A stretch of 64,000 nt of DNA from Acidobacteriota bacterium (lineage in GTDB: Bacteria; Acidobacteriota; Blastocatellia; RBC074): positions 1,570 through 65,569 of the forward strand of contig JAEUQP010000041.1 in the NCBI GenBank assembly GCA_016789645.1, in the 5' to 3' direction. How positions within the stretch are numbered: position 1 is the first letter of the stretch; every line of letters begins with the position of its first letter. This document shows, one piece after another, positions 9,994-42,550 of this stretch. The notes below the pieces were generated by a model. That model saw only the letters and a program-made list of their open reading frames with translations, was not told where the DNA came from and searched no databases. The position numbers and the translations under genes were made by a program.

Positions 9994-10395
9994 ATGACCA
10001 AGGACTCACTCGGAATTGTTAAGCGCCCTCAAGTGGGCGGAGATGTCGAAACCCGTTGCGGAAAATGCAAAGAAAACCGCGCACACGTCATTGTCGCTCT
10101 GAAAGACGATGGAGAAATTGCGCGCGTGCAATGTGGGTTTTGCGGAAGTAACCACATTTACCGACCGGGCAAAACAACAACCAAAACCTCTTCAACCCGT
10201 ACGACGAGTCGCAGCAAAAAAGAATCGTCCGAACCGTCCGGTCCGCCGCGTCCTTATTCGATGCAGGATCGGTTCGCCGCCGGGGATCAAATCGAACATC
10301 CGAAATTTGGCAAAGGAACTGTGGTCGAAGTCCGTTCCGGCAAAATTGATGTGAAGTTCGGCAGGGAACTGAAGACGTTGATTCACGCCGCATAA
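9994..10395 (+). CDS. Zinc-ribbon hypothetical protein
   Basis: Two CxxC pairs (CGKCKE..CGFCG), a Ser/Thr/Lys-rich linker, and a conserved C-terminal GDxVEHPKFGKGTV segment. Confidence 0.4.
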   Translation: MTKDSLGIVKRPQVGGDVETRCGKCKENRAHVIVALKDDGEIARVQCGFCGSNHIYRPGKTTTKTSSTRTTSRSKKESSEPSGPPRPYSMQDRFAAGDQIEHPKFGKGTVVEVRSGKIDVKFGRELKTLIHAA

Positions 10396-10411
10396 CCTCG
10401 GCGTGAATCAT

Positions 10412-11020: not shown

Positions 11021-11029
11021 AAGGGAAAA

Positions 11030-11812: not shown

Positions 11813-11886
11813 CCATCAAAATCTTGACGAGGTTCCGGGCGGGCATCGGTTTGAGTGTTCGACGATTGCCTTTTGCTGGTTGATTG

Positions 11887-18921: not shown

Positions 18922-19509
18922 TTAAAACGGAGCCAGCAGCCGGTGCAATCGGGCGCGAACTTTGTGTTTGAGTTTTCCTCGCCATCCGTGAATCGGTTTG
19001 CGAAACACGCCGACCGTATCGCCCCAAGCGGCGCTCGCCTGATCTTCGTGGAGGCCCCAATCCGTGCCGGATTCGATCAATTCCAGCTTGGCGTATTTGG
19101 CCAGTGCGCGAAATCCATCGGGATAATAGCGCCAGCAATCCACCGGATATCCGTGTTCCGGTCCGCGCGACGGCGCGATCAAGAACACGTAACCGCCGGG
19201 TTTTAACACGCGCTCGATTTCGATCCAGGTCAGCCAGAAAAATTCGATGTGTTCAAAGGCCTGCCCGGAAATGACCACATCGGCGTGTTCATCCGGCAAT
19301 GGCAATTGGTAAGGCGAACTCAGCACCAGATCAACATTCGGCCCGGCGGCCAAATCTATTCCGGTGTAGCTCCATTTCGGAGAAGTCAGCAGCGATTGGT
19401 AACTGCCATTCACGTCGTAACTGCCGATGTCCAAAATCGTCAGTTCGGTGTCGTGAACCAGATACTGTTGAATCAGTCGCTCCATGTGCTGCATGGAACT
19501 GAAATGCAT
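18922..19509 (-). CDS. Class I SAM-dependent methyltransferase
   Basis: Rossmann motif ILDIGSYDVNG and motif LKPGGYVFLIAP; 195 aa. Confidence 0.7.
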   Translation of the reverse strand: MHFSSMQHMERLIQQYLVHDTELTILDIGSYDVNGSYQSLLTSPKWSYTGIDLAAGPNVDLVLSSPYQLPLPDEHADVVISGQAFEHIEFFWLTWIEIERVLKPGGYVFLIAPSRGPEHGYPVDCWRYYPDGFRALAKYAKLELIESGTDWGLHEDQASAAWGDTVGVFRKPIHGWRGKLKHKVRARLHRLLAPF

Positions 19510-19560: not shown

Positions 19561-20517
19561 TCAACCTCGGAGAGAGCTTTTGATCTGCCAGAATCGTTCG
19601 ACGAATTTCCAGGCTTTGCTGTTGACGAGGCTGTCGAGTTGCGCGGTTAAGTTGCCAATCGTCGCTTCGGCGGTTTCGTTGGCTTTTTCAAGTTCGATGA
19701 TTCTGGCCTGCTGATTCGCCAGTGTCTGGTTGAGCGTCTGCGATTGGGTGACGGCTTCGTTCAATCGGAAGTTCAAATCGTGGATGCTGTCTTCCAGCCG
19801 TTTGATGTGGCCTTGGTTAAACACGCGCCGTCCCAATTGAAAGAAAAACTCACGCACAATGGCCTGCTCTTCTGGCGTCGCCCGAAAGAGCGCCTGCAGA
19901 TCGGCGGATTCGACTTCGCCAACGGCCAGCACGCCCAATCCGTGTCCGTGCAAAAATTCAAAGCTGGGATAAGCAACTTTGAGTTCCGCCCACAACCGAT
20001 ACACGCCGAAATCCGCTTCGCGGACATTGGTATCGTGAAACAGCACAATGCCTCGCGGGCTGAGTTTCGGCAGCCAGCTTTCAAAATCGTGCCGAACCGC
20101 TTCGTACGTATGCAGTCCGTCAATGTGCAGCAAATCCGTCGAACCATCGGGAATTTGCGCCAACGCTTCGTCGAAGGTGCAGCGTAACAATCGTGAAAAC
20201 CCGCTGTACCGCGGATCGTGATGCTCGCGAAGATTCGCCAGAATGTCTTCGCCATAAAACCCGCTGTGTTTGTCGCCCTGCCACGTGTCCACGGCATAAC
20301 ACTGCGCTTCCAGCCCCAGAGTTTTGATCGTCTGGCAAAACGCGCAATACGAATCGCCCAGGTAACTGCCCAGTTCGACCACAAACCGCGGCTTGTGTGC
20401 GCTGACCATGAACATCGCAAACGGAATATGTTCCTGCCAGGAGGTGACGCTTGATATTCGTTCCGGAGTGGCAAAGCACAGCGGATGATTCATTGGGTTG
20501 AAGGAAAAGCTCATAAG
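19561..20517 (-). CDS. Class I SAM-dependent methyltransferase (Methyltransf_24/CmcI-like) with C-terminal coiled coil
   Basis: VVELGSYLGDS...LLHIDGLHTYEAV...IVLFHDT motifs; start taken at the internal ATG (MSFSFNP) to avoid a 67-nt overlap with the upstream GT2. Confidence 0.6.
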   Translation of the reverse strand, partial: LMSFSFNPMNHPLCFATPERISSVTSWQEHIPFAMFMVSAHKPRFVVELGSYLGDSYCAFCQTIKTLGLEAQCYAVDTWQGDKHSGFYGEDILANLREHHDPRYSGFSRLLRCTFDEALAQIPDGSTDLLHIDGLHTYEAVRHDFESWLPKLSPRGIVLFHDTNVREADFGVYRLWAELKVAYPSFEFLHGHGLGVLAVGEVESADLQALFRATPEEQAIVREFFFQLGRRVFNQGHIKRLEDSIHDLNFRLNEAVTQSQTLNQTLANQQARIIELEKANETAEATIGNLTAQLDSLVNSKAWKFVERFWQIKSSLRG

Positions 20518-20525
20518 TGTGGTTT

Positions 20526-21596
20526 TCAAAGGGAAGCAATCGGTCGTTTGGCGGCAAGCCAGCACTTGAATCGTGAGAGAAAACGCCAACAAATTCCTAG
20601 CAGGACATGAAACTCAGCGCCGCCTGTCAGGTTTGCGGAGTCTCCGCGCTTTACTCCGCTTATTGTTAGCCAGATCGCTGAGAGCGGGGAAGCATCCAGC
20701 TTGGCCATCCGGCGAATCGCAAATCGTTTTTGTCTTGCCAGCGTTTTTCCGCAGCGAACTTCCAGGACTCGCGCCAAACCGGCGATTTTCAAGACTTGAT
20801 TGAAATAAATCTGTCTTGCCATCTCCCATCCTTCGGCGGTTTTCAGCCTGGGTAAATCGTTATAAAACGTTGTCAGCGAAAGAGGGCGCGCCCCCACAGG
20901 CTCACCAAATCCCGTGACATTTTGATCGTGTTGAATGTAATCGTAGAGCGGACGATTGACCCACTTCAATTTTCCGGCGGCCAACGCCACACAGGCAATC
21001 CAATGATCGTGATGCAAGTCGCCAATTCTATTTGGCAGCGGCAACGCAAGCTCCAGGACGCTACGTCTGAAAACGGCGCTCGCGCCGGTAACGGAGTTGG
21101 TCAACAGCATTGCCGCCAGATCAGTGCAATTATGCAGTCGCTGAACCCAGAAGGTTTCGGAAATTGTTTTGCCCGCTGCGTTCACGATTCGCATATCACT
21201 GTAAACCAGCGTGGTCTCATCGTCGAAATTCGAGAGCAGAGTTTCCAGCTTGTCCGAATACCAAAAATCATCCTGGTCAGCCAACGCCACGTATTCGGCT
21301 TCTTCCGGGATAAGTGATAACGCGCGCTCAAAATTGTAGTAAAAGCCCAGCCGTTGCGGTGCAACCGAAAGAACGAAACGATTATCCGCCCTGATGATCT
21401 TTTTCATTTCGGCCAGCGTTTCGCCCGCTGAGCAGTCGTCGCTGATCACGCAACGCCAATTGCGATAGCTTTGCGCTTTGAGCGATTCGATTTGCGAGGC
21501 AAAGGCAGGTATTCCGGGATTGTAAGTCGCCATTGCCACCGCAATCAGCGGCTGAATCGGTTTAGCCAGTGATGAGTTCTCTGCAGTGTTCATCAA
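20526..21596 (-). CDS. Glycosyltransferase family 2
   Basis: GT-A motifs: IAVAMATYNPG, ISDDCSAGET, DQDD. Confidence 0.75.
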   Translation of the reverse strand: MMNTAENSSLAKPIQPLIAVAMATYNPGIPAFASQIESLKAQSYRNWRCVISDDCSAGETLAEMKKIIRADNRFVLSVAPQRLGFYYNFERALSLIPEEAEYVALADQDDFWYSDKLETLLSNFDDETTLVYSDMRIVNAAGKTISETFWVQRLHNCTDLAAMLLTNSVTGASAVFRRSVLELALPLPNRIGDLHHDHWIACVALAAGKLKWVNRPLYDYIQHDQNVTGFGEPVGARPLSLTTFYNDLPRLKTAEGWEMARQIYFNQVLKIAGLARVLEVRCGKTLARQKRFAIRRMAKLDASPLSAIWLTISGVKRGDSANLTGGAEFHVLLGICWRFLSRFKCWLAAKRPIASL

Positions 21597-22834
21597 AAAA
21601 CAACGTTGCGCCGTTTGCTGGGAAACGCCGCCTGGTATTCCCGTTCGTAAGCCAGTGCGACCTGCTCTACAGACAAAATGAACTGTCCTTTGAGATTGTC
21701 TTTGTAACCGTTGAGCACTTGGGGATCCTGAATCAGCGATTGCAAAATATCGCGCAATTGCAGGACATCGCCAATGGGGAAAGTCCGCCCGCTGACGCCA
21801 TTTTTGACAACCTCCGTCATTCCCCCCAAATCAGTGACAACGGCGGGCACGTTCGACGCCAAGGCTTCCAGCAGGATAATCGGGGTGTTTTCATACCAGA
21901 TCGAAGGAACTATGGCGACGTCTACCTGCCCAAGCACCTCTCCAATTTGGTCAGCTGAGAACACGCCGCACAGCTTGATGCGCGGGTCGTTTTCGGCGGC
22001 TTGCGTTAACACATGCTCGTATTGGCCGGAACCGTAAATTTTCAACTCTACGTCTCCTTTCACCCATTTGAACGCCTGCGCCAGGATGTGAACGCCTTTG
22101 TGCCGGATGAAAGAGCCCCCATAAAAAAATGTCAGTTTGTCGCCCGGCTTGTATCGCCGAAGATTTCTGCGAATTCTGGAATAACTGATGCCATATCCAA
22201 TCTCGCGCAAATTCAAATCGCCGTACTCTTTGCGAAACATCTCCCCAAGAAATTTGGACGGCGCAATCACGCGGTGGGCCTGGCGAAGGAACTCGCTTGT
22301 GATTTCCAATCGCCGCCGAATCTCAGCATTAGGGATTTCGCTGCACAATTGGTTGCAAGCCGTGCCCTGTTCCGGTCCCGCGCACAGGCTGTTGCGTGAA
22401 GTCATCAGCGTAACTTTCGGGCAGAGCAAGAAGAAATCTGTCAGCGTCAACATATAAGGAATACCAGCTTCGCGCGCGGCATAAATGAAATCATGAACGC
22501 CCATCATATGCGCGGCATGGATGATGTCCGGCTTTTCCTTTGCCAGCATGCGCCGAGCGAAGTCCAGCATTTCCCCTTGTCCCAGATTGTATTGCTGGTC
22601 GGCAGGTTCATAAGGCAGCCTCACAAATGTGACCGGAACGCTCCCGTAAAGGAACTCCCGCACCAGCACACCGGCTTCCTCGTGACTGAAGCTGGAGTGT
22701 TGGCGAAATGAATATGAGACGACCTTGACGCGATGCCCAATTCGCTGAGCGCCCTTTGCCAGTTCCAGCAGGAATTTTTCCGTTCCGGTGTAATGATCGG
22801 GATAAAACTGATGAACCAGGTACAGTATCTTCAT
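21593..22834 (-). CDS. Glycosyltransferase family 4 (GT-B)
   Basis: MKILYLVHQFYPDHYTGTEKF N-terminus and a C-terminal E-x7-E-type motif region (ENTPIILLEALASNVPAVVTDLGG); 4-nt overlap with the downstream GT2 indicates translational coupling. Confidence 0.8.
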   Translation of the reverse strand: MKILYLVHQFYPDHYTGTEKFLLELAKGAQRIGHRVKVVSYSFRQHSSFSHEEAGVLVREFLYGSVPVTFVRLPYEPADQQYNLGQGEMLDFARRMLAKEKPDIIHAAHMMGVHDFIYAAREAGIPYMLTLTDFFLLCPKVTLMTSRNSLCAGPEQGTACNQLCSEIPNAEIRRRLEITSEFLRQAHRVIAPSKFLGEMFRKEYGDLNLREIGYGISYSRIRRNLRRYKPGDKLTFFYGGSFIRHKGVHILAQAFKWVKGDVELKIYGSGQYEHVLTQAAENDPRIKLCGVFSADQIGEVLGQVDVAIVPSIWYENTPIILLEALASNVPAVVTDLGGMTEVVKNGVSGRTFPIGDVLQLRDILQSLIQDPQVLNGYKDNLKGQFILSVEQVALAYEREYQAAFPSKRRNVVF

Positions 22835-22837
22835 TGG

Positions 22838-24574
22838 CTAAACTCCCTGCCTCAATTCCAGTTCGAGTCTGGCAGTTGCGTCATCGTTTGCTGGCGAAGA
22901 GAGGAAATAGCTTGCCAGGATCACGCCTGCAGCCATGGCGTGCGATTTGAAGACGGCCTGTTTGAACTCTGTGAACAGTGCCTGATCCACAATCTCGTAA
23001 ACAGAATTCAGATGGTTCTTGATCCGCCAAACCATATCGTTCACGGTGGCTGTGATCGCTTTGTCATCGGCCACGTCTTTTTCCGGCGCGGAAAAGTCCG
23101 CTGCCAGTCGGGTTAAAAACTCCCGGTAGCGATCATCAACATCAAATGTTTCAATAGTATTTGTCGCCGGAGTCGGGCCGTTCCAGCGTTTTTCAATTGC
23201 CGCGAGAAATTGAATTGTCGAACAGGGAAACTGAAGTTCGCTTTCCAGAGAGTTGAGAGCACGGCTCAGGTTCTGGTAGGAGGACAACATCCCTTGGCTC
23301 AAGGCGGGCAAATCGGTGGTCGGCAGAATCGGAAAGTCGGTGAAGGTCTTTGCCATAGAAACCGTTTCCACAAACCCACGCCGCAAATGGTAATAAGCCG
23401 GACGATTGTGCGAATGAATGACGCGCGTTGAACTCAAGAGAACCAATTTGTGACCATCAGCAGTGAGCCGCAGGCCTAAGTCCAGATCTTCGGCATAATC
23501 GCTCCGGAAACGATACTGTGTGAAGACTCCACGTTCGATCAAACACGCGACGTTGTTCAATTGGCAATGTCTTCTCACGGTTTCGTAATCCGAACTCGGC
23601 GGAGCACCGGTCACGCGGTCGCCGCCATCCAGTTTAAGGAAGCGGATATGGTTGTGGGAGTTGACGCAATAGAACAGATCAACGTCTTCGCGCGGTGATT
23701 CGGCTGGACTCACGGCAACAGCGCCCGAAGTGCGAGCCGCTTGGATCATCTCGTATAAAAAGCGGCGAGACCCGGGTAGCGCATCCTGGGTCATAAAGAG
23801 CAGGTAATCGCCTGTGGCGGCATCCGCTCCCAGATTGCGCGCCGCTGAATGTGAAAAATCCTTCGGTGCAATTTCGATGACTTTGGCTCCGTAGGCGCGA
23901 CTCAACTCGACCGTATCATCCCGGCTGCCGGAATCTACGACAATGATTTCCACATTTTCGCAACCTTCTTGTGATTTAAGCGAAGAAAGCAGCGTGGGAA
24001 GCTCATCGCCGGGATTAAGCGTTGGAATGACGACGGAGACCGACGATCGTTCCAGCGTCGAGCAATCGTTCGACCAGGCACTGGAGAAATCGAAAGTTGG
24101 AACCGAGATTTTGTGCCTATGCATGTGGGCGACTTTGATCCGTCTCCTGATTTCAGCTCTGTTGCCTGCGGTGTCCCGCACCCGAACCAAAATCTGACAC
24201 TCCTCCGAATCTCGCTTTTCGTCCAGGAGGAAGGTTCCGCCGAATCCCACCTGAGATGAGCCTAGTTCAGGTAGCGCGTCCAACACGTCGGGGCGTTCAA
24301 GTCCATATTTGATATCGCCTATCAATTTGTCGTCAATAAAAGCTTCAATCCGTTCCACCCTTGCCGACAATGAAACCGCCCACCCGTAAATTTCTAACTC
24401 TAGTTCGTGCAATTTGTCCGGAGTTGGGTAGTCAAGGCTATACAGAAATGGCGACGGAGGGTTGGAACGCAAACGCCGGTAGATGCGACCGGCAACCGAC
24501 ACCGCTCCTTCTGTCTGCCAGAATTCTGCCATGCGCAGAATTTTTTGTTTGATGTCATTTATCATTGGCAACAT
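22838..24574 (-). CDS. Multidomain glycosyltransferase (central GT2 domain)
   Basis: Central VSVVIPTLNPGDELPTLL...VVDSGSRDDT...DALP GT-A motifs flanked by N- and C-terminal extensions. Confidence 0.7.
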   Translation of the reverse strand: MLPMINDIKQKILRMAEFWQTEGAVSVAGRIYRRLRSNPPSPFLYSLDYPTPDKLHELELEIYGWAVSLSARVERIEAFIDDKLIGDIKYGLERPDVLDALPELGSSQVGFGGTFLLDEKRDSEECQILVRVRDTAGNRAEIRRRIKVAHMHRHKISVPTFDFSSAWSNDCSTLERSSVSVVIPTLNPGDELPTLLSSLKSQEGCENVEIIVVDSGSRDDTVELSRAYGAKVIEIAPKDFSHSAARNLGADAATGDYLLFMTQDALPGSRRFLYEMIQAARTSGAVAVSPAESPREDVDLFYCVNSHNHIRFLKLDGGDRVTGAPPSSDYETVRRHCQLNNVACLIERGVFTQYRFRSDYAEDLDLGLRLTADGHKLVLLSSTRVIHSHNRPAYYHLRRGFVETVSMAKTFTDFPILPTTDLPALSQGMLSSYQNLSRALNSLESELQFPCSTIQFLAAIEKRWNGPTPATNTIETFDVDDRYREFLTRLAADFSAPEKDVADDKAITATVNDMVWRIKNHLNSVYEIVDQALFTEFKQAVFKSHAMAAGVILASYFLSSPANDDATARLELELRQGV

Positions 24575-26109
24575 AAACTACTAAGTCCTTGAGTAATCTG
24601 GCCAGCAACCAACAGGCTGCCAAACTCAGCGCCAGGCAACAGGCACAAAGGATACGCAGCATCTGAAATGTACGATATGAAATTGAAATTGTCGGTCGCC
24701 AACTCTGTGCCAGCATCGGTTGCGGTGTGGCGAATTCACGCAAATCCACCGGTTTTTCCTGAGGCGCATCCTCCGGTTTAACAAACCACCAATGCGACGG
24801 CGCTGGCCACCAAACGGCTTGCGCATCGCCACGAATCCGGAGTTTGAGCAACTGCCAGTTGAATCGAATGTGATTCCAGCGCAAATCGTGTTGGATATGT
24901 TCCAGCGTGGATTGCGTGCTTTGGATTGCCGCGCGGTGAAGCGCAACGTATGGAAACAGGCTTCCCAGCAGCGACACCCAAAACCCGATGGCCAACAATG
25001 CGAGCAGCAAGAGTTCTTTTCGCCAGACGAATTCGACGGATGATTTCGACGCCGCCAGACACAACAGCAACGGCGCAATGGCGACGTGCAAATAACGCGG
25101 CCCCCAGGTTTCTTCCGCCCACATGCGTATGATCGAAAATCCAGCGATCATTCCGCCCAAGGTCAGCAAGGCAAAAACAACGAGTTTTGGTTGCCGCCGA
25201 TACGCTTTGCCAAGCGCCAACAAACTCAACCCCAGAACCGGACAATACACCAACAAACTTTTGTTGGCAGAACCCAGGTACGAAAACGCCTGCAACACGG
25301 CCATCGCCAGATCGTCCACCAGCAACTGCCGAAAGTAACTTAAGCCGGCGTCGCCTTCCGCCCAGTAATTCGACTTGGCGAAGTAATTCGCGAATTGAGC
25401 GATTCCGGTCAGCGCCACCACTGAAACCAGCTTGAACCAGTCCAAGCGTTCCAAAGGGAGTTCGTTCGCTGGGCGGAAATAGTGAAAAACCAGATAGCTC
25501 GTCGCTGGCAGCAGGAAAATTCCGTTTTGTTTGACCGTTACCGCAATGGCGCAGAGCAATCCCAGCAGCAGAACTTCCGCCCAGGTTCGCGTTGGAATTC
25601 GCCCCAGCGCCAGAAATGCCACAGCAAACAGCGCCAACGATTGCGTGGTTTCCAGCCCGATGTAGGCATACGGCCAGAGCATTGTTCCCAGCGCGCCACA
25701 AGTTGCCAGCAACACCGCCCAGCGAAAATCCTTTGTCAGCCGGTAGCACCAGATCAGCAGCAATGTGCAAAGCAACGAGGTCGCCAGAATCGGTTGCAGG
25801 ATTGCCAATCGTCCCAGCCATTTCACCGAATCGCCAAAGACCGCTCGATTGACCAGCGCGAGCGGCAGATGCAACAGCGGTTCGAGAAAGCCATGCCGCG
25901 ACCATTGCACACGAACCAGCGGACGACCATTGACGGCGTTGACCAGATTCGTGGCCAGTTGATTGGCGGCAATCAGGTTTTCCTGGTTGTAGCCTTGTCC
26001 TTCAATCGTGCCCGGCGTCAGCGCCAGATAAAACAGCGTCAGCGCCAGAAAAAACAACCGGCAAACCTGCCAGAACTTTTTATGATTCGGCGCGATCAGG
26101 TGTTCCATC
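24555..26109 (-). CDS. Polytopic membrane protein, putative GT-C (ArnT/PMT-like) glycosyltransferase or polymerase
   Basis: About 12 predicted TM helices; start placed at the internal ATG (MEHLIAP), because the first ~110 codons of the long ORF look non-coding. Confidence 0.45.
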
Positions 26110-26172
26110 GTTTCAGCCTTAACCGCAGAGGCGCAGAGACCGCAAAGCCAGCGCAGAGAAATTTCCGGAAGG

Positions 26173-28560
26173 TTAATTCGCCCTCTGCGGAACCTCAGCG
26201 TTCTCTGCGCCTCTGCGGTGAGCTTTTGACAGTTGTTTGTGAATTTCCAGCTTGAGCGGAACGTTTTGATGCGGTTGCCAGGCAGTTTGCCATTTGGCTT
26301 CGTACCGGCGCTGGTTTTCTTCAAAAATGCGGTCGTAATCGCCGGATTTGATGAGTTTGCCAAACGCCGCTTGCCCGAAATGATGGACGAACACATCCGC
26401 CGCGCAGACCAAACGATAACCTGCCTGTTTGACACGAACAGAATAATCGTCGTCTTCGAACATGCCTATGCCAAAGCGTTCATCCAGCGGCCCGATTTGC
26501 TGAAAAACTTCGCGGCGCAGAGCAACGCAGAACATCGCCAGCATATGAATATCCGACACCAGCAAATCGTTTGCCCAGGTGTGTTCCACCGCAAACTGTT
26601 CCATCTCTTGCCACGTCGCATAAGGAACTTCGATTTTGGCTTCGTTGCCGACAAAGTTCGTCACCGGGCCGACCATGCCGACTTGCGGATCGTTCAAATG
26701 ACGCAACAACCGGCTCAACCAGCCGGGCGGCACAATTGTGTCGTTGTTCAACAAGACGATGAATTCGCCCGTCGCCACTTCGATGCCCTGATTGTTCGCT
26801 TTGGCAAAGCCGAAATTCTGATCGTTCAAAATCACCTTTACCGAAGGTTCCAGTTCCGCCAATTGACGCAAATAATCGGGCGTGCCGTCTTTCGACAGGT
26901 TGTCCACGATGATGATTTCAACGTTCGGGTATTCCGTGTTGCGCAACACGCTTTCCAGGCACAATCGCGTCAACGCCAGATTGTTATAGGTGACGATGAT
27001 GATGCTGGCGCGCGGAACCGATTGCCGGAGTTCGGCTTCAATCCGGTCGTAACGGTTTTTCCACGTATGTTGGCGAGCCAGCGTGCGGCGCTGTTCGGCC
27101 AAGTGCGGATCGCTTTCGGCAATCGCCGAATCGAGTTTGGCAACGAATTCTTCAGCAGTTTCAGCCAGATACACGTGTTCGCGGTACTGCTGCAACTCCG
27201 ACATGTTCGTTGCGACGACGGGTTTGCCGCCGCTCCAGTATTCGTACAGCTTGACCGGGTCGGTCGCTTCGGTAATCGGATTGATCTTAAAGGGAATCGT
27301 GCAAACGTCGAAATGATGCAGATACTGCGGCATGGTTTCGTACGGTTGCTGGCCGAGCAGTTTGACGTTCGACAAAGCTTGCAGTCTCGAAACGTCCACG
27401 TCGAACACTCCGCCGAGCAAGACGAACGAATAATTCGGACGTTGCCGCGCGGCTTCGGCCAGCAGATCAATATCGAACCAATCGGCGATGGCTCCGAAAT
27501 AGCCCGCGATTGGGTGTGGAATGTCTGCCAGCAGAGGATTCGGCTGGCAACGTTGAACGTAAAAATCGTAATCCGCCGCGTTGCGCGCCAACACGACAGG
27601 ATTGCCCGCTTCGCTACGCCAGCGCCATTTTTGGGCCAGCCGCTCAGCCGTCACCACCAGCAAATCACATTCATTTACCAACTGATGTTCGGCTTCCAAG
27701 CTGGCAGGTTTGATGCCGGGGAAGTTTTCCCATTCGTCCATGCAATCGTAAACCACCTGCCAATCCCAACGCCGCCGGGTTTCAAGCGCCGTCTGGCTCC
27801 ACGAAGGAATCATCACGTAACTGATCGCTTGATTGATGGAAAATTCGCGGCGCAAATCGTCCAGCGCGCCCAGCGCCAGTTCCAGGTCTTTGCCTTCGAT
27901 GACTTCGTGAAAAATATCCAGCGGATAGCGCGCGGCCAATTCCACTTCGTAAATGTTTTCGGCAATTGGCGACACGGCAAATTTCGGACGAGCGTAACGG
28001 CTGCGAAACTTCGACACGCTCAGGTAAAACACGCGGTGCCCGTTGGCGGCGAATTGCGACATCAATTGTTGCGGTCGTTGAAACCGAAACGACCAGTCAA
28101 TGATCGAAAAACAAATCACGTCAGGTTTGGCGCGTGTGGTGGCCGCCAACGGTCGGTTGAGAATCGCTTCCACGTCCGGCTTGGGCAAATGCGGCAGCAA
28201 TGTCACCGACCGGTAAAAATCATTGCCGGTGGAATCGTTCAGCGATACGCGAAGTCGTTTTTGGGTCAGAACGTAATCCGTAATCAGATTGCCGAGCGGC
28301 AGCAAGCCAAATCGGCTGCGCACCAGTTGTACGGCTCGGCGGCGCAACGGATGCGGAATCATCACGCGCATTGCTGCGCGCAGCGCACGGTATGGCCCGT
28401 TCGGCAATTCCTGACGAACAGCCAAACGCGCACGTTGAAACAGATTGAATTGAGCATCAGCGCCTGGCTGACCAAGGGGTTCCGGCATAGCGATAATTTC
28501 GGGCAACCGACTCAAGATGGGGCGAGAACGATTGAAATCCAACCGGTGAGGTTCCCGCAA
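26173..28560 (-). CDS. Bifunctional glycosyltransferase (N-terminal GT-B/GT4-like + C-terminal GT2)
   Basis: C-terminal GT2 motifs (ASIIIVTYNNLALT, IVDNLSKDGT, LLNNDTIV) and an N-terminal ~450-aa GT-B-like region. Confidence 0.7.
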   Translation of the reverse strand: MREPHRLDFNRSRPILSRLPEIIAMPEPLGQPGADAQFNLFQRARLAVRQELPNGPYRALRAAMRVMIPHPLRRRAVQLVRSRFGLLPLGNLITDYVLTQKRLRVSLNDSTGNDFYRSVTLLPHLPKPDVEAILNRPLAATTRAKPDVICFSIIDWSFRFQRPQQLMSQFAANGHRVFYLSVSKFRSRYARPKFAVSPIAENIYEVELAARYPLDIFHEVIEGKDLELALGALDDLRREFSINQAISYVMIPSWSQTALETRRRWDWQVVYDCMDEWENFPGIKPASLEAEHQLVNECDLLVVTAERLAQKWRWRSEAGNPVVLARNAADYDFYVQRCQPNPLLADIPHPIAGYFGAIADWFDIDLLAEAARQRPNYSFVLLGGVFDVDVSRLQALSNVKLLGQQPYETMPQYLHHFDVCTIPFKINPITEATDPVKLYEYWSGGKPVVATNMSELQQYREHVYLAETAEEFVAKLDSAIAESDPHLAEQRRTLARQHTWKNRYDRIEAELRQSVPRASIIIVTYNNLALTRLCLESVLRNTEYPNVEIIIVDNLSKDGTPDYLRQLAELEPSVKVILNDQNFGFAKANNQGIEVATGEFIVLLNNDTIVPPGWLSRLLRHLNDPQVGMVGPVTNFVGNEAKIEVPYATWQEMEQFAVEHTWANDLLVSDIHMLAMFCVALRREVFQQIGPLDERFGIGMFEDDDYSVRVKQAGYRLVCAADVFVHHFGQAAFGKLIKSGDYDRIFEENQRRYEAKWQTAWQPHQNVPLKLEIHKQLSKAHRRGAENAEVPQRAN

Positions 28561-28763: not shown

Positions 28764-29627
28764 ATGTCCACACCAACCGACAAGATCAGTTTTTCAGCGC
28801 GGCAGTCTGCCAACTCACCGGTTTACGATTCGGCATTGCTGGGCAATCCGGCCGTTTCGGAAATGAAGGATTTGTGGCAATACCGCGATCTGCTGTGGCA
28901 ATTGATCGCGCGCAATATCAAAACCCGTTACAAACGGTCGGTGTTGGGCATCTTGTGGACGATGTTGAATCCGTTGCTGATGATGTTGGTGCTGACCTTT
29001 GTCTTTTCGAACATCTTTCGGTTTCAGCAGCCGCATTATGCCGCGTATGCGTTGGCGGGATTGGCGCTGTGGAATTTCTTCGCACAAACGACGACCGGCG
29101 CAATGAGCGAATTGATCTGGGGCGGCAGTTTGATGAACAAGATTTATTTGCCGCGTTCGATTTTTGCCGTCACGGCGCTGGGAACCTCGCTCGTCAATTT
29201 GTTGCTGACGCTGATTCCGTTGTTCGTGGTCATGATCATCACGGGAGTTCCGCTGCGTCCGGCATTGCTGATTTTGCCGTTGCCGATTGTGATGACGGCG
29301 ATGTTCGCGCTTGGCGTAGCGTTGGTATTGTCTCGCGTGGCGGCGTATTTCGCCGACGTGTTGGAGATGTACCAGATTTTTTTGATGGCCTGGATGTATC
29401 TGACGCCGATCATTTATCCCAAAGAAATCATTCCACGGCATCTGCAATGGATGTTCGATCTGAATCCGATGTACCACCTGATCGAAATTTTTCGCGCGCC
29501 GCTGTTGATTGGCTGGCTGGCCGGACCGAAGACGGTGCTGGCTTCGGTCGTCGCGGCGTTTGTCACACTGGCGTTTGGCTGGTGGTATTTTTCCAGGAAA
29601 GCCGATGAGCTTGCTTACCGAATCTGA
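28764..29627 (+). CDS. wzm: ABC-2 type polysaccharide export permease (Wzm/KpsM/TagG-like)
   Basis: Six TM helices and an ABC-2 signature; directly followed by the overlapping ATPase gene. Confidence 0.75.
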   Translation: MSTPTDKISFSARQSANSPVYDSALLGNPAVSEMKDLWQYRDLLWQLIARNIKTRYKRSVLGILWTMLNPLLMMLVLTFVFSNIFRFQQPHYAAYALAGLALWNFFAQTTTGAMSELIWGGSLMNKIYLPRSIFAVTALGTSLVNLLLTLIPLFVVMIITGVPLRPALLILPLPIVMTAMFALGVALVLSRVAAYFADVLEMYQIFLMAWMYLTPIIYPKEIIPRHLQWMFDLNPMYHLIEIFRAPLLIGWLAGPKTVLASVVAAFVTLAFGWWYFSRKADELAYRI

Positions 29628-31299
29628 AAATCCGAGACCCAAAGACAAGCGAATCGAAACTGCCGCGAACGATGCTGACGTGGTCATTCGGCTGGAAAAC
29701 GTGTCGGTGGTGTATCGCGCGCCGCGCGAACGAATCAAAACGTTCAAGGAATATGTCATTCGCAAGGTCAAACGACAGGTCGAACATCAGCAGTTCAATG
29801 CGTTGCGCGACGCCAGCCTGGAATTGCGCCGCGGCGAAGTATTTGGATTGATCGGCCACAACGGCGCAGGCAAAAGCACCATGCTGAAACTCGTGTCGCG
29901 CGTGATGAAGCCGACTCGCGGGCGCGTCTGGGTGAAAGGGAAGATCGCTCCGTTGCTGGAACTCGGCGCAGGGTTTCATCCCGAACTGAGCGGGCGGGAA
30001 AACATTTTTCTCAACGGAACGCTGTTGGGATATTCGCGCGCCGAAATGGCGAAGCTGTTTGACAGCATCGTGGAGTTTGCCGAAATCGAAGATTTCATAG
30101 ATGCGCCGCTTCGCACGTATTCCACGGGAATGGCCGGACGATTGGGATTTGCCGTGGCGACGGCGACGCGTCCGGACATTTTGATCGTGGATGAAGTGTT
30201 GTCCGTTGGCGACGAACAGTTTCAGGAAAAATGCGCCGAACGCATTACGGAATTTCGCCGACAAGGGACGACCATTTTGCTGGTGACGCATTCGTCCGAA
30301 TTGGTGCAGCGCATTTGCGACCGAGCCGCCTGGCTGGATCACGGCCAGATTTGCAGTGTGGGACAGCCTGCGGAAATCGTTCGTCAATATCACGACCGTT
30401 ATCATCTCGCTTCGCCTGTTTCCGAACCGGAACCCGTCGAGGGTTCAGAACCCGTTCCGGAGGAGCCGAAAGTTCCGAAGATCATTGTCACCGAGCAGTT
30501 GGAGGAGGCCGAGCCGCTGGCGGGAGAGAGTGCCGTCAGCGATGAAGTGCGAGCGCTGGAACAGCGTGCGCTGCAAAAAGCGTGGTTTTATCCGTTTGCG
30601 TTGCCCAGCGGCAGACGCGTCGAATGTTATTTGCCTCCGCACGTTGCTGTGATTCACGCCAATCGGCTGGCCATGGTGGAATCGGCGCTGAAAACGACTT
30701 TCGGCTCAGATTGGTCGCAGCTTGATTGCCTGGACGTTGGCAGCAATCAGGGCTTTTTTTCAGTCAAGCTGGCACAGCGCGGTTGCCGAAACGTCGTTGG
30801 TCTGGAAGCTCGACCGCAAAACATCGAAGACGCCGAGCTGATTCGAAAGATGTACGATCTGAACAACCTCAGTTTTCGGAACGGCGATGTGACCAAACTC
30901 AACCCGGCGGACTGGCCGCAATTCGACGTAACAATCATGTTGAGCGTGTTGTTTTGGCTGGAAAATCCGATTGGCGTGTTGCGCACGCTCAAGGCGCTGA
31001 CCCGGCATTTGTTGATTCTTGAAACGCCTGTTGCGCCAGAAATCTTTGGCGAGATGGATTGGGGAAGCCGTGATGTACGCAAACAGTTGCAAGGATCATT
31101 TGCCTTACTCGATTTGACTGAAGAATCAAAAATGCATGTGGGTAGTTTGACTGAACTGTCATTTTGTCCAGGGCGTGAATCTCTGATCTGGTTGCTGCGA
31201 AAGCTGGGATTTTCCAGCGTCGAAATTGTCGCACCTTTACCGGAGGCTTACGAGCAATTGGTGTCCGGTAGTAGGGTCATGGTTGTTGCGCGAGTTTGA
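29605..31299 (+). CDS. wzt: ABC transporter ATP-binding protein (Wzt/TagH-like) with a C-terminal class I methyltransferase-like domain
   Basis: Walker A GHNGAGKST, signature YSTGMAGRLGFA, Walker B ILIVDE; the C-terminal ~250 aa contains LDVGSNQGFFSVKLAQRGC...DVTIML, a SAM-MTase-like Rossmann fold. Start at ATG 29605 inside the larger ORF. Confidence 0.75.
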   Translation: MSLLTESENPRPKDKRIETAANDADVVIRLENVSVVYRAPRERIKTFKEYVIRKVKRQVEHQQFNALRDASLELRRGEVFGLIGHNGAGKSTMLKLVSRVMKPTRGRVWVKGKIAPLLELGAGFHPELSGRENIFLNGTLLGYSRAEMAKLFDSIVEFAEIEDFIDAPLRTYSTGMAGRLGFAVATATRPDILIVDEVLSVGDEQFQEKCAERITEFRRQGTTILLVTHSSELVQRICDRAAWLDHGQICSVGQPAEIVRQYHDRYHLASPVSEPEPVEGSEPVPEEPKVPKIIVTEQLEEAEPLAGESAVSDEVRALEQRALQKAWFYPFALPSGRRVECYLPPHVAVIHANRLAMVESALKTTFGSDWSQLDCLDVGSNQGFFSVKLAQRGCRNVVGLEARPQNIEDAELIRKMYDLNNLSFRNGDVTKLNPADWPQFDVTIMLSVLFWLENPIGVLRTLKALTRHLLILETPVAPEIFGEMDWGSRDVRKQLQGSFALLDLTEESKMHVGSLTELSFCPGRESLIWLLRKLGFSSVEIVAPLPEAYEQLVSGSRVMVVARV

Positions 31300-31498
31300 C
31301 CAATGAATTTCTGGTCGAATACCAAGTTGGTGGACAGGATTTGCGACTTCGCTCATCGGCGCAAAGGAGTGATTTCGGTTCTGGTGTTCTGCGCTCGCCA
31401 AGCCAGAAAGCTGTTGACGGCGTTTCGCAAATCAAGTGAAGCCAAAGACGTTCGCGCGTAAAAGTGAGGCTCTGGCAGCGTCGCAAGAGACACGAGCA

Positions 31499-32605
31499 AT
31501 GAAAGTTTTCTCCATTTTCGGCACTCGCCCCGAAGCCATCAAAATGGCTCCAGTGGTGAAAGAACTCGGCAAACATTCGGAAATTGAAAGTGTCGTGTGC
31601 GTCACGGCTCAGCATCGTCAGATGCTGGATCAGGTGCTGGAACTGTTCGGCATTCCGCCAGATTACGATTTGAACTTGATGCAGCCCAATCAGTCGTTGG
31701 CTCAATTGACGGCGAAAGCGTTGGTCGAACTGGATGTCGTGCTGGCAAAAGAACAGCCCGATTGGGTGCTGACGCAAGGCGACACGACCACGGCCATGGT
31801 TGGCGCGTTGGCCGGATTTTACCGCCGCATCAAAGTCGGCCACGTCGAAGCCGGTTTGAGAACCTGGGACAAGTTCCAGCCCTTTCCTGAAGAAATCAAT
31901 CGCAAAATCGCCGATGCCGTGTGCGATTTGCACTTTGCCCCGACTGAGCAATCCCGCGACAACTTGCTGCGCGAATCGGTTCATTCGTCCAGCATCATCG
32001 TCACCGGCAACACCGTCATTGACGCGCTGCTGGAAGTCGCCTCTAAAAATTACGACTGGAGCTCTGGCGAACTGGCGGCAGTCCCGCGTGACAAACGAAT
32101 CTTGCTGGTGACGGCGCATCGCCGCGAAAACTTCGGCCAGCCGCTGGTGGAAATTTGTCAGGCATTGAAAGAAATTGCGGCTCGCTTTGCTGATGTTCAG
32201 GTCGTTTATCCGGTTCATCTGAATCCGAACGTCCAGCAAGTCGTTCAAGCGGAACTTGGCGACATTGCCAATATCACTTTGCTAGCGCCACTCGATTATT
32301 TGCCGCTGGTGCAATTGATGAAGGCTTCGTATTTGGTGCTGACTGATTCCGGTGGGCTGCAAGAAGAAGCGCCGGGGCTTGGCAAGCCTGTCTTGGTGCT
32401 GCGCGAAGTCACTGAACGCCCGGAAGGCGTCGCAGCTGGAACCGTCCAATTGGTGGGCACAAATAAAGACCGCATCGTCGCTGCGACGATGCGTCTGCTG
32501 ACTGATGCCGCCGAATACAACCGCATGGCTCAGGCTGTCAATCCGTACGGCGACGGCAAGGCCAGCCAACGCATTGTCGAAAGCCTGCTATCGTTTCAAA
32601 AATAA
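31499..32605 (+). CDS. wecB: UDP-N-acetylglucosamine 2-epimerase (non-hydrolysing)
   Basis: MKVFSIFGTRPEAIKMAPV...HVEAGLRT...full-length Epimerase_2 signature; start at ATG 31499. Confidence 0.85.
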   Translation: MKVFSIFGTRPEAIKMAPVVKELGKHSEIESVVCVTAQHRQMLDQVLELFGIPPDYDLNLMQPNQSLAQLTAKALVELDVVLAKEQPDWVLTQGDTTTAMVGALAGFYRRIKVGHVEAGLRTWDKFQPFPEEINRKIADAVCDLHFAPTEQSRDNLLRESVHSSSIIVTGNTVIDALLEVASKNYDWSSGELAAVPRDKRILLVTAHRRENFGQPLVEICQALKEIAARFADVQVVYPVHLNPNVQQVVQAELGDIANITLLAPLDYLPLVQLMKASYLVLTDSGGLQEEAPGLGKPVLVLREVTERPEGVAAGTVQLVGTNKDRIVAATMRLLTDAAEYNRMAQAVNPYGDGKASQRIVESLLSFQK

Positions 32606-32659: not shown

Positions 32660-32745
32660 GCCGGGGTGGTGGAACTGGTAGACACACAGGACTTAAAATC
32701 CTGAGACTCGAAAGGGTCGTGCGGGTTCGATTCCCGCCCTCGGCA
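32660..32745 (+). tRNA. tRNA-Leu (anticodon TAA), type II with long variable arm
   Basis: Acceptor stem GCCGGGG/CCTCGGC, anticodon loop CTTAAAA, long extra arm, T-loop GGTTCGATTCC. Confidence 0.8.
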
Positions 32746-32766: not shown

Positions 32767-33990
32767 TTACTTGCAGCGCGACTTGTCGTTTCTGTCCACG
32801 GATTGGCCAATCTGCGCCAGAGTTTGCGCTGCGCGGCCCATCGCCCCCGGCGTGTGATGCAGATAATGCGCAATCAATTCCTTGGCCGTGTGCCCGGTGA
32901 TTTGCCCGATGGTGTCAAAATCCATGCCGGCATTTGCCAATCGCGTCGTCACGGTGTGTCGAGTGGTATGGAGCACAACTCCGTCGGCGGTGCGCTTGCC
33001 ATACGGAATTTCGCATTGTTCACATGCCGTTTTCAGAATTCGATAAAATTTGGGATAGATTTTTCCACTGGCGCCAAACACAAACGCGCCGCGCTTTCCC
33101 TGCTCCGCTTCGGCCAGCACGTCGCGCATCGGTTCCGTAATCGGGATCTGCTTGTAACGGTCTGTTTTGGCCTGGTAGATCAACACCCGCCCATTGTCGC
33201 GGTCAATATCCGTCCACCGCAATCCAACGATTTCCGAATGACGCGCGCCGCTGAGCATGGCGAATTGCAAAATCCAGCCAACCCGGACGCGAGCCTGGTG
33301 CGCGTTGTGGCGATTTTGCGCCCGCGCGTCGCCGTCCAGGGCATCCGGCGGACGGCGAAGCCAGGTCAACAGCCGGACATACTCTTCTTCGCTGAGAATT
33401 CGTTCGCGGCGAGATTTTTTAACTTTTAATCGAGGAATGCGCGGCGGTCGCCAAGAATTTAATTCCGGAAAAAAACTGGCGGCGGCGTTCAGGGTTGCCG
33501 CGATCACGTTCAGTTCCCGGTTGACACTCGACGCGGCCTGTCCCTGCTCAGTCCTGAGCGTGGCGTATTGGCGAATCTGAGGCGTTTCCAGCCCCTCCAC
33601 CGTCACCGGCGATTGATACCCTCCGACAGGGCAAAATCGTTCGTCTAGCGTCACCAGCGGGTCCAGCAACCGCAACCAGGTAAACAGCACTCGCCGGGCG
33701 CGAGACCGTTCGGCAGTCGGCGTGATGGTGGCCAGCCGGAGGGTGATCAGTTGCTGCAACCGAGGCCGGTCTTTGGCCAGCGCAAATCCGTATCTGGCTG
33801 CCCGCTCGGTTTCCCGGATGGCGGCAATGGCGCGCTCCGCTTCCGCGCGCGAAGTGAATCCCTTGGTTCGAACCCGCCGGCGTGGCTTCCCTGCTCCCTG
33901 AGAAATGCGAATATCAATTTCCCAGACCGGGTTCCCGGCTTCGTCGAAGAGTGGTTTTTTGTCCAGTCCTTTTGCTCGTTTAATGGCCAT
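32767..33990 (-). CDS. int: Tyrosine-type site-specific integrase
   Basis: C-terminal catalytic region HTTRHTVTTRLANAGMDFDTIGQITGHTAKELIAHYLH (R..H..R..Y type); adjacent to the tRNA 3' end; start at ATG 33990 (MAIKRAKG). Confidence 0.85.
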   Translation of the reverse strand: MAIKRAKGLDKKPLFDEAGNPVWEIDIRISQGAGKPRRRVRTKGFTSRAEAERAIAAIRETERAARYGFALAKDRPRLQQLITLRLATITPTAERSRARRVLFTWLRLLDPLVTLDERFCPVGGYQSPVTVEGLETPQIRQYATLRTEQGQAASSVNRELNVIAATLNAAASFFPELNSWRPPRIPRLKVKKSRRERILSEEEYVRLLTWLRRPPDALDGDARAQNRHNAHQARVRVGWILQFAMLSGARHSEIVGLRWTDIDRDNGRVLIYQAKTDRYKQIPITEPMRDVLAEAEQGKRGAFVFGASGKIYPKFYRILKTACEQCEIPYGKRTADGVVLHTTRHTVTTRLANAGMDFDTIGQITGHTAKELIAHYLHHTPGAMGRAAQTLAQIGQSVDRNDKSRCK

Positions 33991-34000
33991 AAAACACAGC

Positions 34001-34045
34001 AAAAACCAGTACTGATTTCAGTCAAAAAATCAGTACTGGTTTTTT
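34001..34045. promoter_or_regulatory. Palindrome (17-bp arms, 10-nt spacer) with ATCAGTACTG core, upstream of int
   Basis: AAAAACCAGTACTGATT-tcagtcaaaa-AATCAGTACTGGTTTTT; shares its core with the 61-bp palindrome at 34468-34528. Confidence 0.5.
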
Positions 34046-40204: not shown

Positions 40205-40915
40205 ATGCCTGTTGAATACACAGTCGCTGAATCGGTTCGGGATTTTGCCGATCAGCTCATCAAGAATCATCACCCGCACCTGACAAACGTCAAAATCGAA
40301 TACGTGTTTCGATCTCAAGCGGCGACCAAAAACGGCAAGGCGATTTGGGGCAGGGCAAAACTGGTAACCGGTTTGAATGCTTGGTTGGCGACGCCGATGA
40401 TTCAGCGATGGAACCGGCCAGAACCGTTCTTTTGTCTCGAAATTGCTCGCGATATTTGGAGCCGGCTTAACGAGAACCAGCAAAAAGCACTTGTAGACCA
40501 TGAACTGAGTCACTGCGACCGCGATCTGGATTCCGGCGATTTGACGATCGTCGGTCATGACCTGGAAGAGTTTGCGCATATTTTGCGCCGGCATGGTCTC
40601 TGGCATAGCGACGTAGAGATGTTTGCAAAGACAGGCGCTGAGCAATTGTCACTACTCTCAATCATTGAACAACGCGCCGAAACCGCCGATCTGGCCGAAA
40701 CGGTGACCATCCAGCGACTAAACGGGCAGTCGCTGACACTGTCACGGGAAGAATTACTGAGCGCGTTTTACAAACTGGAGGCTGAATCCAAACTCGGCAT
40801 TGTGCTGGACTCCAAACTCGGCACTGTGCTGGACAAGGTCACAGAGCGCATCAATAGCGGCTCACTGGATAGTGACAGTGTGACCGTCACTGCAAAGCGA
40901 ACTACTTCAAACTGA
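40205..40915 (+). CDS. Putative phage metallopeptidase (HExxH)
   Basis: VDHELSHC contains HExxH; architecture typical of phage 'putative metallopeptidase' proteins. Confidence 0.55.
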   Translation: MPVEYTVAESVRDFADQLIKNHHPHLTNVKIEYVFRSQAATKNGKAIWGRAKLVTGLNAWLATPMIQRWNRPEPFFCLEIARDIWSRLNENQQKALVDHELSHCDRDLDSGDLTIVGHDLEEFAHILRRHGLWHSDVEMFAKTGAEQLSLLSIIEQRAETADLAETVTIQRLNGQSLTLSREELLSAFYKLEAESKLGIVLDSKLGTVLDKVTERINSGSLDSDSVTVTAKRTTSN

Positions 40916-41578: not shown

Positions 41579-42550
41579 ATGTCCACGAACTCAACTGACA
41601 GCCAGGAAAGACTGGCACTCTTTGATCTAGCCAGGCCGACGGCCATTCGCTGTCAGCAGGCTTGCGACGCGCGTTTCAGTCTCCGGCGCGCGTCGCCTTC
41701 ACAAAACCTCACGGAGACGGTGCATGAGATGGGGAAACTTCCCGCAATACAATTTTACCCAGCGGATTGGCGCAAAGACCCAGGCGTTCAGTCGCTTTCC
41801 TTCCACGATCGTGGTGTTTGGTTAGAGATCATTTGCCTTATGCATGAATCGGAGCAGCGGGGCAGGTTACTTTTGAACGGCAAACCAATGCCGGATGAAG
41901 CCCTTGCGCGGTTGCTCGGTTTGGATAAGCAAATCGTAACCAAGACCATAAGCACACTTCTGGAATACGGAGTGGCCAGCATTGACCCGGAAACCGGGGC
42001 GCTGATGAATCGGCGGATGGTTCGAGACGAAAACCTTCGGGCTGTTCGGCAGGCGGCAGGGAAAATGGGCGGAAATCCGGCTTTGCTTAAGCAAAAAGAA
42101 ACCACCGGGGTTAAGCAAAAAGAAACCACCGGGGTTAAGCAAAACCTAACCCCTTCATCTTCATCTTCATCTGCATTTTCAATTACACAGACAGCAGGCG
42201 CGCACGAAGCTCCATTTTCGCCGGAATTTTCACCAGACGCAGAGCAGCAGACAGCGGCAATTGATGAAATCGCCAAACTCCTGTGCGATCTGCACGAAAT
42301 TCAGGACGGTTCCGGCTGGCTGCTTCGAGATAAATTTCAGGGACTGGCGGCGGAGCTGCATGGCGTGCAGGCGAACACACAGACAATTCGCGCATTCTGG
42401 AGTCATCGCCGCGTAAAACCACAGATCCAGTATTTTGTGCAGGATTTTATCGCCTGGCGCGCGGGTCAGAAAGGAAACCCCAATGGAAGCAATAAAAACG
42501 GCAATAGCAAACCTGCCGGTGACCGCTGGAAATCCGGCACGCAGTTGTGA
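41579..42550 (+). CDS. DUF1376-like phage replication protein with internal 8-aa tandem repeat
   Basis: FYPADWRKDPGVQSLSFHDRGVWLEIICLM matches the DUF1376 fYvgDW..d...L pattern; KQKETTGV x2 encoded by a 24-bp tandem repeat; alternative start at ATG 41729. Confidence 0.5.
   Translation: MSTNSTDSQERLALFDLARPTAIRCQQACDARFSLRRASPSQNLTETVHEMGKLPAIQFYPADWRKDPGVQSLSFHDRGVWLEIICLMHESEQRGRLLLNGKPMPDEALARLLGLDKQIVTKTISTLLEYGVASIDPETGALMNRRMVRDENLRAVRQAAGKMGGNPALLKQKETTGVKQKETTGVKQNLTPSSSSSSAFSITQTAGAHEAPFSPEFSPDAEQQTAAIDEIAKLLCDLHEIQDGSGWLLRDKFQGLAAELHGVQANTQTIRAFWSHRRVKPQIQYFVQDFIAWRAGQKGNPNGSNKNGNSKPAGDRWKSGTQL

Follow-up and report, generated by a model that had tools for sequence, protein, structure and literature searches.

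Export of lipid-linked glycans by Wzm/Wzt-type ATP-binding cassette (ABC) transporters is known with and without dedicated chain terminators. A C-terminal coiled coil is the classical hallmark of ruler-type terminators. The Wzt proteins of non-terminated systems, Klebsiella O2a among them, end after the ATPase domain and lack a binding module. A 2024 paper states that every terminated O-polysaccharide example has a carbohydrate-binding module on the ATPase, where it reads the cap (PMC11231755). We analyzed a 64,000-nt stretch (hereafter the window) of an Acidobacteriota bacterium of the Blastocatellia (contig JAEUQP010000041.1, positions 1,570 to 65,569), in which a single gene, wzt-MTase (29605..31299, + strand; 564 amino acids plus stop), encodes a Wzt ATPase, a linker and an S-adenosylmethionine (SAM)-dependent methyltransferase. 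The methyltransferase domain sits where the closest ATPase relatives carry the binding module Wzt_C; the module has been replaced by an enzyme. The fusion occurs in one clade of soil-dwelling Acidobacteria, so far only in uncultured organisms, and it departs clearly and consistently from the accepted scheme.

The Escherichia coli O8/O9a systems (Klebsiella O5/O3) share with this locus the ABC-dependent pathway, the Wzm/Wzt pair and a multi-domain polymerizing glycosyltransferase, but here the methyltransferase lies within the ATPase polypeptide and the Wzt lacks a binding module. The SAM contacts of the terminator WbdD, R36 and D82 (PMC3482155), align in a profile alignment with R354 and E401 of the fusion protein, and its motif I, LDLGCAQGFF, is almost identical to LDVGSNQGFF here; unlike WbdD, the fused domain lacks a kinase domain, a coiled-coil ruler and a membrane-anchoring tail. 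In operation the system would resemble the terminator-dependent ABC pathway, but it lacks two defining features of that branch, a binding module on Wzt and a coiled coil on the candidate terminator. In the ‘TET’ operon for the common polysaccharide antigen of Pseudomonas syringae, wzm, wzt, a methyltransferase assigned to termination and a bifunctional glycosyltransferase are encoded together, and some isolates have methyltransferase-glycosyltransferase fusions (PMC7820976). This module set equals the minimal core described below, with the methyltransferase (‘wbdD’) gene directly following wzt and preceding ‘wbdA’. The TET methyltransferase is separate, however, its Wzt keeps the glycan-binding domain, and the operon serves a rhamnan in another phylum, whereas here the enzyme is fused and the binding domain is gone. 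WbbB of Klebsiella O12 and ORF6 of O7 combine a methyltransferase-kinase, a coiled coil and two glycosyltransferases in one protein (PMC11231755), which attaches a capping enzyme to the assembly machinery as proposed here. In those proteins the partner is the polymerase and both the ruler and the Wzt binding module are present; in the window the partner is the exporter ATPase, with no ruler in the fusion protein and no binding module. Unlike a Klebsiella O2a-type Wzt, the ATPase here is followed by an enzyme of 250 amino acids, and its nearest relatives are of the binding-module type. No description of an ATPase-methyltransferase fusion was found in full-text literature searches; the 2019 terminator census (Mann, Kimber and Whitfield, Glycobiology) was outside that search, and a prior mention is possible.

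The gene lies in an open reading frame at 29509..31299 (+) that holds an ATG at 29605, yielding the 564-residue product. This start overlaps by 23 nt (29605-29627) the 3′ end of wzm (28764..29627, +; ABC-2 type polysaccharide-export permease, Pfam ABC2_membrane, E 2e-24). Because the same 23-nt overlap is called in a 48%-identical relative (locus L001) and the N-terminus MSLLTESE is kept across the family, followed by about 15 variable, disordered residues, the start at 29605 is judged sound. The stretch encoding MSLLTESE is itself the wzm overlap, and its conservation may reflect dual coding or translational coupling. An identical protein is recorded at NCBI (MBL8186542.1, from an Acidobacteria metagenome-assembled genome [MAG]).

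Pfam, NCBIfam and sequence motifs delimit a Wzt/TagH-type nucleotide-binding domain at 29677..30399 (+; residues ~25-265). ABC_tran matched residues 67-198 (E 2.9e-20), and the Walker A (GHNGAGKST, 84-92), signature (YSTGM, 172-176), Walker B (ILIVDE, 192-197) and H-loop (VTHS, 227-230) motifs are present. Residues 46-264 align to the Wzt/RfbE and TagH ATPases of NCBIfam; the best matches were galactan Wzt/RfbE (4e-63) and TagH (3e-57 and 8e-53), all under the equivalog cut-offs and thus indicative of class membership, not of orthology. By these matches the protein is assigned to the Wzt class of polysaccharide-export ABC ATPases (Wzm-Wzt, TagGH). Residue conservation was counted in 48 family members at 45–87% identity, and the mean column identity of the ATPase domain was 0.80, with a ratio of nonsynonymous to synonymous substitution rates (dN/dS) of 0.07–0.14; since dS was near or above 1 in most comparisons, all dN/dS values given here are approximate. 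The domain is followed by an Ala/Glu/Ser/Pro-rich linker (30400..30540, +; residues ~266-312) with a column identity of 0.45. Its dN/dS, at 0.18, 0.76 and 1.08 in the three computable comparisons, exceeded that of both flanking domains. The spacer between the invariant Y262 and W327 varies from 32 to 77 amino acids across the family. A full-length model comprised two well-folded domains separated by residues 269-307 with a predicted local distance difference test score (pLDDT) below 50, and its predicted template modeling score (pTM) of 0.49 means that no inter-domain orientation is defined. As the linker is disordered, variable in length and poorly conserved, the methyltransferase is flexibly tethered to the ATPase.

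The C-terminal domain (30541..31296, +; residues 313-564) begins with a WFYPF hairpin and is of the class I SAM-dependent methyltransferase type. Five class I methyltransferase Pfam models scored above their gathering thresholds within residues 369-539; these include Methyltransf_23 (369-539) and Methyltransf_31 (373-467), the latter with 42 bits where the cut-off is 27. An AlphaFold2 model of residues 310-564, built from a 25-sequence alignment, had a pLDDT of 95.6 and a pTM of 0.92, and adopted the alpha/beta Rossmann methyltransferase fold. A Foldseek search against the PDB gave 1628 matches at E ≤ 0.001, of which the best 50 listed were all proteins with the SAM-methyltransferase fold. The best match was the N-terminal sugar O-methyltransferase domain of EvdMO1 (5T38/5T39; E 2e-14, template modeling score 0.71–0.77), whose structures contain S-adenosylhomocysteine (SAH), and SAH plus D-fucose; ToxA and CmoB came next. 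The family profile likewise matched EvdMO1 (1.9e-12) ahead of the WbdD methyltransferase domain (1.2e-9), the latter over a span of only ~100 residues around the SAM site that includes the SAM contacts. H132, H133 and R203 form part of the acceptor site of O9a WbdD; for the O8-type enzyme, a hydroxyl methyltransferase, there is no structure. EvdMO1 is hence the best match of the domain in both structure and sequence, but identity is ~21%, and EvdMO1 acts in secondary metabolism (everninomicin), is fused to an oxidase and has a different acceptor.

The residues of the SAM site are strongly conserved among the 48 family members. R354, the motif I residues L376, G379 and G383 (L376-D377-x-G379-x-x-x-G383), and E453, P455 and E473 were found in all 48, with an N between E453 and P455. 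Positions 377, 401 and 441 were Asp or Glu in every member, E401 being the ribose-binding acidic residue, and D428 was conserved in 43. Column identity over the domain was 0.60, and dN/dS against five relatives was 0.12–0.19, similar to that of the ATPase domain; the domain is under purifying selection. The C-terminal ~250 amino acids therefore constitute a true class I SAM methyltransferase that, on its residues and its model, looks catalytically competent. A preliminary description of this DNA had proposed a Wzt-type ATPase joined to a methyltransferase-like Rossmann domain at 29605-31299, quoting two strings that are indeed present, LDVGSNQGFF at 376-385 and FDVTIML at 440-446. Pfam, NCBIfam and the modeled fold bear out this architecture; the model is a Rossmann fold and not a beta-sandwich carbohydrate-binding module, and the conservation in the 48 homologues gives no sign of loss of the SAM site.

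The same description held that the methyltransferase stands in place of a glycan-binding module, with which our searches agree. The fusion protein had no Pfam match to Wzt_C (PF14524) even at E up to 1. A hidden Markov model (HMM) was also built from 13 binding-module tails of sister Wzt proteins and run on the six-frame translation of the 64 kb window, where it found no binding module (best E 1.2); as a positive control, it recovered the Wzt of a related locus (L027) at 4.7e-10. With both the protein scan and the six-frame search empty, a hidden binding module was rejected. The nearest ATPases outside the fusion clade are 60–67% identical and end in Wzt_C, and a rough neighbor-joining tree without bootstrap places the Wzt_C-bearing ATPases as the sister group of the fusion clade.

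A protein database search returned ~90 protein clusters (90% level) with the ABC plus methyltransferase architecture, 45–87% identical, and every cluster named by taxon was from Acidobacteria, Blastocatellia or Blastocatellales. A search of 185,579 species-representative genomes yielded 27 loci with a match to the whole or most of the methyltransferase domain, and 23 of these have the ATPase in the same open frame (L008 is truncated by the contig end). The 23 fusion genomes are labeled Acidobacteriota/Blastocatellia, except for a few Heliomicrobium/Heliobacteriaceae MAGs whose labels we take to be wrong. A frameshift or assembly artefact was rejected in view of the ~90 clusters from independent samples, the 23 species-representative genomes and the identical NCBI protein.

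Thirty related loci were compared by tblastn with the window proteins, gene calls being used for L001 and L002. The comparison revealed a conserved core in which a dual glycosyltransferase gene stands divergently to wzm, wzt-MTase and usually wecB, and the fusion always lies within this glycan core locus. The permease gene wzm is syntenic and 62–90% identical in every related locus that has DNA upstream of the ATPase gene. In the window, wecB (31436..32605, +; UDP-N-acetylglucosamine [UDP-GlcNAc] 2-epimerase, Pfam Epimerase_2, E 5e-125) adjoins the fusion gene on its 3′ side, as in most relatives, and as part of the core it is predicted to supply UDP-N-acetylmannosamine (UDP-ManNAc). The divergent gene at 26173..28560 (−) encodes a bifunctional glycosyltransferase of GT-B/GT4-like plus GT2 type (Glyco_trans_1_4 at 351-478, Glycos_transf_2 at 518-688), a candidate polymerase; most related loci have it in this divergent position with 55–87% identity. 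Five loci (L001, L022, L028, L030 and L057) contained no other methyltransferase on the DNA available, up to 8–10 kb on each side, and the fused domain is therefore the only tailoring enzyme there. By their gene content, such minimal loci favor the capping role suggested in the preliminary description.

Attachment of pathway enzymes to the C-terminus of this ATPase group is not confined to the one methyltransferase. In P0110 (L053, 2875-4281; 468 amino acids), the ATPase is 63% identical and likewise starts with MSLLT; the methyltransferase attached to it is of the Methyltransf_23 type and shows no detectable similarity to the domain of the present family. Since that methyltransferase is unrelated, P0110 indicates an independent fusion to the exporter ATPase; in the neighbor-joining tree it groups with the binding-module-bearing Wzt proteins. 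P0097 (L052, 10001-12028) and P0098 are Wzt-WecB fusions without a methyltransferase, nested inside the fusion clade. The polymerase of the P0097 locus, with 1393 amino acids, has two other methyltransferase modules ahead of its dual-glycosyltransferase part, resembling in arrangement the terminator-polymerase fusions of Klebsiella O7 and O12 (PMC11231755); fusions in L002, described below, are of the same style. From these architectures, methyl-transfer modules have been shuffled between exporter and polymerase in this group. P0112, an ATPase with an RmlC-like domain (PF00908), was not counted as a fusion; its N-terminus is a Wzm tail, and it looks mis-called or frameshifted.

The methyltransferase subfamily extends beyond the fusion. 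A profile run against 1.84 billion cluster representatives matched 120 of them at E ≤ 1e-30, most of them stand-alone proteins of ~250 amino acids and only three of them ATPase fusions. Multi-domain members pair with other methyltransferases, RMNT_CmcI (rhamnosyl O-methyltransferase) or Methyltransf_24, or with a glycosyltransferase. Six independent contigs have the order RMNT_CmcI, a stand-alone homologue (34–36% identical), a methyltransferase and Wzt, and in one of them, L027, the Wzt carries Wzt_C by Pfam. The components of the fusion recur in these operons, where the methyltransferase is a protein of its own and Wzt has kept its binding module.

Next to the core, the window encodes a set of further glycan enzymes on the minus strand. 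The gene at 19561..20517 (−) encodes a Methyltransf_24 methyltransferase (Pfam, E 1.7e-27) with a tail of ~70 amino acids that matches coiled coils at 258-322. Full-length homologues of this protein occur in ~12 of 22 fusion loci, and in L002, where up to seven methyltransferase modules are present, the Methyltransf_24/coiled-coil module aligns over its full length to the N-terminus of two GT2 proteins (805 and 904 amino acids). In architecture it resembles a ruler-type terminator and is a putative alternative capping enzyme at this locus. A small accessory Methyltransf_11 methyltransferase (18922..19509, −; Pfam, E 1.9e-11) is found in few relatives only. The preliminary description had correctly noted these two stand-alone methyltransferases, now assigned to families, and had passed over the coiled coil of the larger one. 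Three accessory glycosyltransferases identified by Pfam, a GT2 (20526..21596, −), a GT4 (21593..22834, −) and a second GT2 (22838..24574, −), are missing from the minimal loci. A polytopic membrane protein (24555..26435, −; likely start near 26108, giving ~517 amino acids) has many hydrophobic spans, had no Pfam match and is present in some relatives only. Modification of the exported glycan as a GT-C-like extracytoplasmic enzyme is a possible role, because the corresponding L052 gene cluster encodes a PMT_2 protein on the far side of its polymerase and methyltransferase genes.

The FHA/PP2C genes are separated from the glycan genes by the gene for a subtilase of 1729 amino acids (13637-18826, +; Peptidase_S8, P-domain and He_PIG Ig-like repeats). 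Giant proteases of this kind also flank the locus in L002 and L009; the subtilase might be a glycosylated surface protein or a mere neighbor. The window backbone at 6419-12945, encoding a SPOR/BNR protein, a Ham1 NTPase, a PP2C phosphatase and a zinc-ribbon FHA protein, is syntenic with L001, L022 and L030. In those three loci the FHA/PP2C genes directly abut the dual-glycosyltransferase core, whereas 13 kb separate them in the window, and for this reason the S8 protease, two methyltransferase, three glycosyltransferase and membrane-protein genes are an accessory block inserted in this lineage. On the other side of the core, a tRNA-Leu gene (32660-32745) lies directly downstream of wecB and is followed after 22 nt by a tyrosine integrase gene (32767-34002, −) and by ~8 kb of reading frames mostly without family matches, including a phage-type metallopeptidase (40205-40915). 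A tRNA-Met lies at ~41534. By its gene content, the region is probably an integrated element; a search for a repeat of the tRNA-Leu 3′ end of at least 18 nt, as an attachment site delimiting the island, found none. Two perfect or near-perfect 24-nt tandem duplications are present in the putative island region (40784-40831 and 42087-42134).

On the evidence of its sequence, wzt-MTase encodes the Wzt subunit of an exporter that, together with Wzm, carries a lipid-linked glycan to the cell surface, and this subunit bears on a flexible tether what is probably an active sugar O-methyltransferase. Our leading though tentative proposal, to which we give a little less than an even chance, is that the tethered enzyme, positioned at the transporter, methylates the lipid-linked glycan, most probably on the non-reducing end, and so joins termination to export. 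Polymerization by the dual glycosyltransferase would take place on the cytoplasmic side, with undecaprenyl diphosphate as the carrier and UDP-ManNAc from WecB; the methyltransferase at the transporter mouth would bind and methylate the non-reducing chain end; and methylation would block extension and simultaneously bring the completed chain to the exporter. A single polypeptide would thus combine the jobs of WbdD as terminator and of the Wzt binding module as reader. The glycan acceptor, the terminal position of the methyl group and the control of chain length and export are all what we infer from several lines of evidence: the descent of the ATPase from binding-module-bearing, terminated-type Wzt proteins, the minimal loci with no other tailoring enzyme, the similarity to WbdD and EvdMO1, the termination-assigned methyltransferase directly after wzt in the P. 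syringae TET operon (PMC7820976), and the terminators known to be fused to components of the machinery (PMC11231755). P0110 indicates selection for the exporter-methyltransferase arrangement, and the RMNT_CmcI operons and the fusions suggest independent links of this type of methyltransferase to glycan export. Several observations weigh against the proposal. The sequence fits terminal and internal methylation alike. The fusion protein has no coiled-coil ruler; the methyltransferase fold forms its C-terminus, and the linker is the one segment that is not globular. The coiled-coil Methyltransf_24 protein, encoded in the window and in about half of the related loci, would be the terminator under the classical scheme. 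The methyltransferase domain has changed more quickly than other parts of the core (36% identity in L001, against 64% for the ATPase), the Wzt-WecB proteins show that downstream genes become fused in the same clade without an obvious mechanistic reason, and all fusion-bearing genomes found are MAGs. Stand-alone homologues also occur in other settings, one (40%) between queA and tgt (L054, 8001-8753) and another (39–40%) in Wenzhouxiangella (L023, 9992-10744) beside genes for a RIO-type kinase, CDP-alcohol phosphatidyltransferase, CdsA and an acyltransferase, that is, beside a kinase and phospholipid genes. Because of these queA/tgt and phospholipid contexts, acceptor specificity in the subfamily is not uniform, nor is the subfamily restricted to glycan loci, and with such mixed contexts the evidence on the acceptor is no more than suggestive. 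Of the preliminary proposal of a methyl-capped glycan whose capping enzyme is fused to the exporter, the methyltransferase on Wzt has thus held up; the capping role has not to the same degree, as terminal and internal methylation are undecidable from sequence and the 19561-20517 protein is an alternative capper.

If that protein does cap the glycan, possible tasks for the fused domain are to attach a further methyl group, to decorate internal residues or to read the cap. Decoration coupled to export, in which an active tethered enzyme O-methylates internal residues (in each repeat unit or a fraction of them) during synthesis or as the chain feeds into the transporter, we regard as somewhat unlikely; chain length would then be set by an obligatory coupling of polymerization to export, or by the coiled-coil Methyltransf_24 protein where present. 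All evidence for an active glycan methyltransferase fits such decoration equally, and the lack of a ruler on the fusion, the methyltransferase-rich relatives (up to the seven modules of L002), which suggest heavily methylated glycans, and the better architectural match of the coiled-coil protein to known terminators speak for it. A stoichiometric modifier would, however, be expected to accompany the polymerase and not the exporter. The ATPases nearest in sequence have the binding modules of the terminated type, and where methyltransferase modules are known in fusion with machinery of the ABC pathway, they act as terminators (PMC11231755, PMC7820976). It is improbable that the enzyme acts on another substrate (a lipid, nucleotide sugar, small molecule, RNA or protein) or that the order of genes in this lineage happened to produce the fusion, without mechanistic coupling. 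The homologues at queA/tgt and beside phospholipid-synthesis genes, the structural neighbors CmoB (tRNA) and ToxA (small molecule), and the read-through fusions exemplified by Wzt-WecB would agree with this, but the fusion is under purifying selection across the ~90 clusters and 23 species-level genomes, has a second origin with an unrelated methyltransferase in P0110, and is invariably embedded in the glycan core. Slightly less probable still, finally, is a domain that reads and does not write, recognizing a terminus capped by another enzyme (in the window, the coiled-coil Methyltransf_24 protein) with SAM or SAH in a structural role and little or no catalysis. The domain does occupy exactly the position of the relatives' binding module, and a window with a terminator-like methyltransferase and no binding module would need some other recognizer if the classical checkpoint logic holds; yet the SAM-contact and motif residues are all conserved as in an enzyme, and in the minimal loci there is no second methyltransferase that could make the mark. 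We know of no precedent for such a reader.

The capping proposal has a bolder form, in which the tethered methyltransferase would be both terminator and substrate recognizer, and the dual glycosyltransferase, Wzm and Wzt-MTase would polymerize, cap and export the glycan with neither ruler nor binding module. We consider this conceivable but on balance unlikely. In such a three-protein machine, chain length would arise from the rate at which the growing end encounters the transporter-borne enzyme, perhaps tuned by tether length. If true, it would constitute a third mode of ABC-dependent assembly, beside ‘terminator plus binding module’ and ‘no terminator, no binding module’.

The fusion proteins are presently annotated merely as ‘ATP-binding cassette domain-containing protein’. 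That the C-terminus of Wzt has gained two unrelated methyltransferases and WecB suggests that it serves generally as a docking point for modules of the glycan pathway. If the exporter of these Acidobacteria does carry a capping-type enzyme, the checkpoint between termination and export can be built differently, and more simply, than in the described systems, and the minimal four-gene locus (dual glycosyltransferase, wzm, wzt-MTase and wecB) would be a compact system for the coupling of termination, chain length and export.

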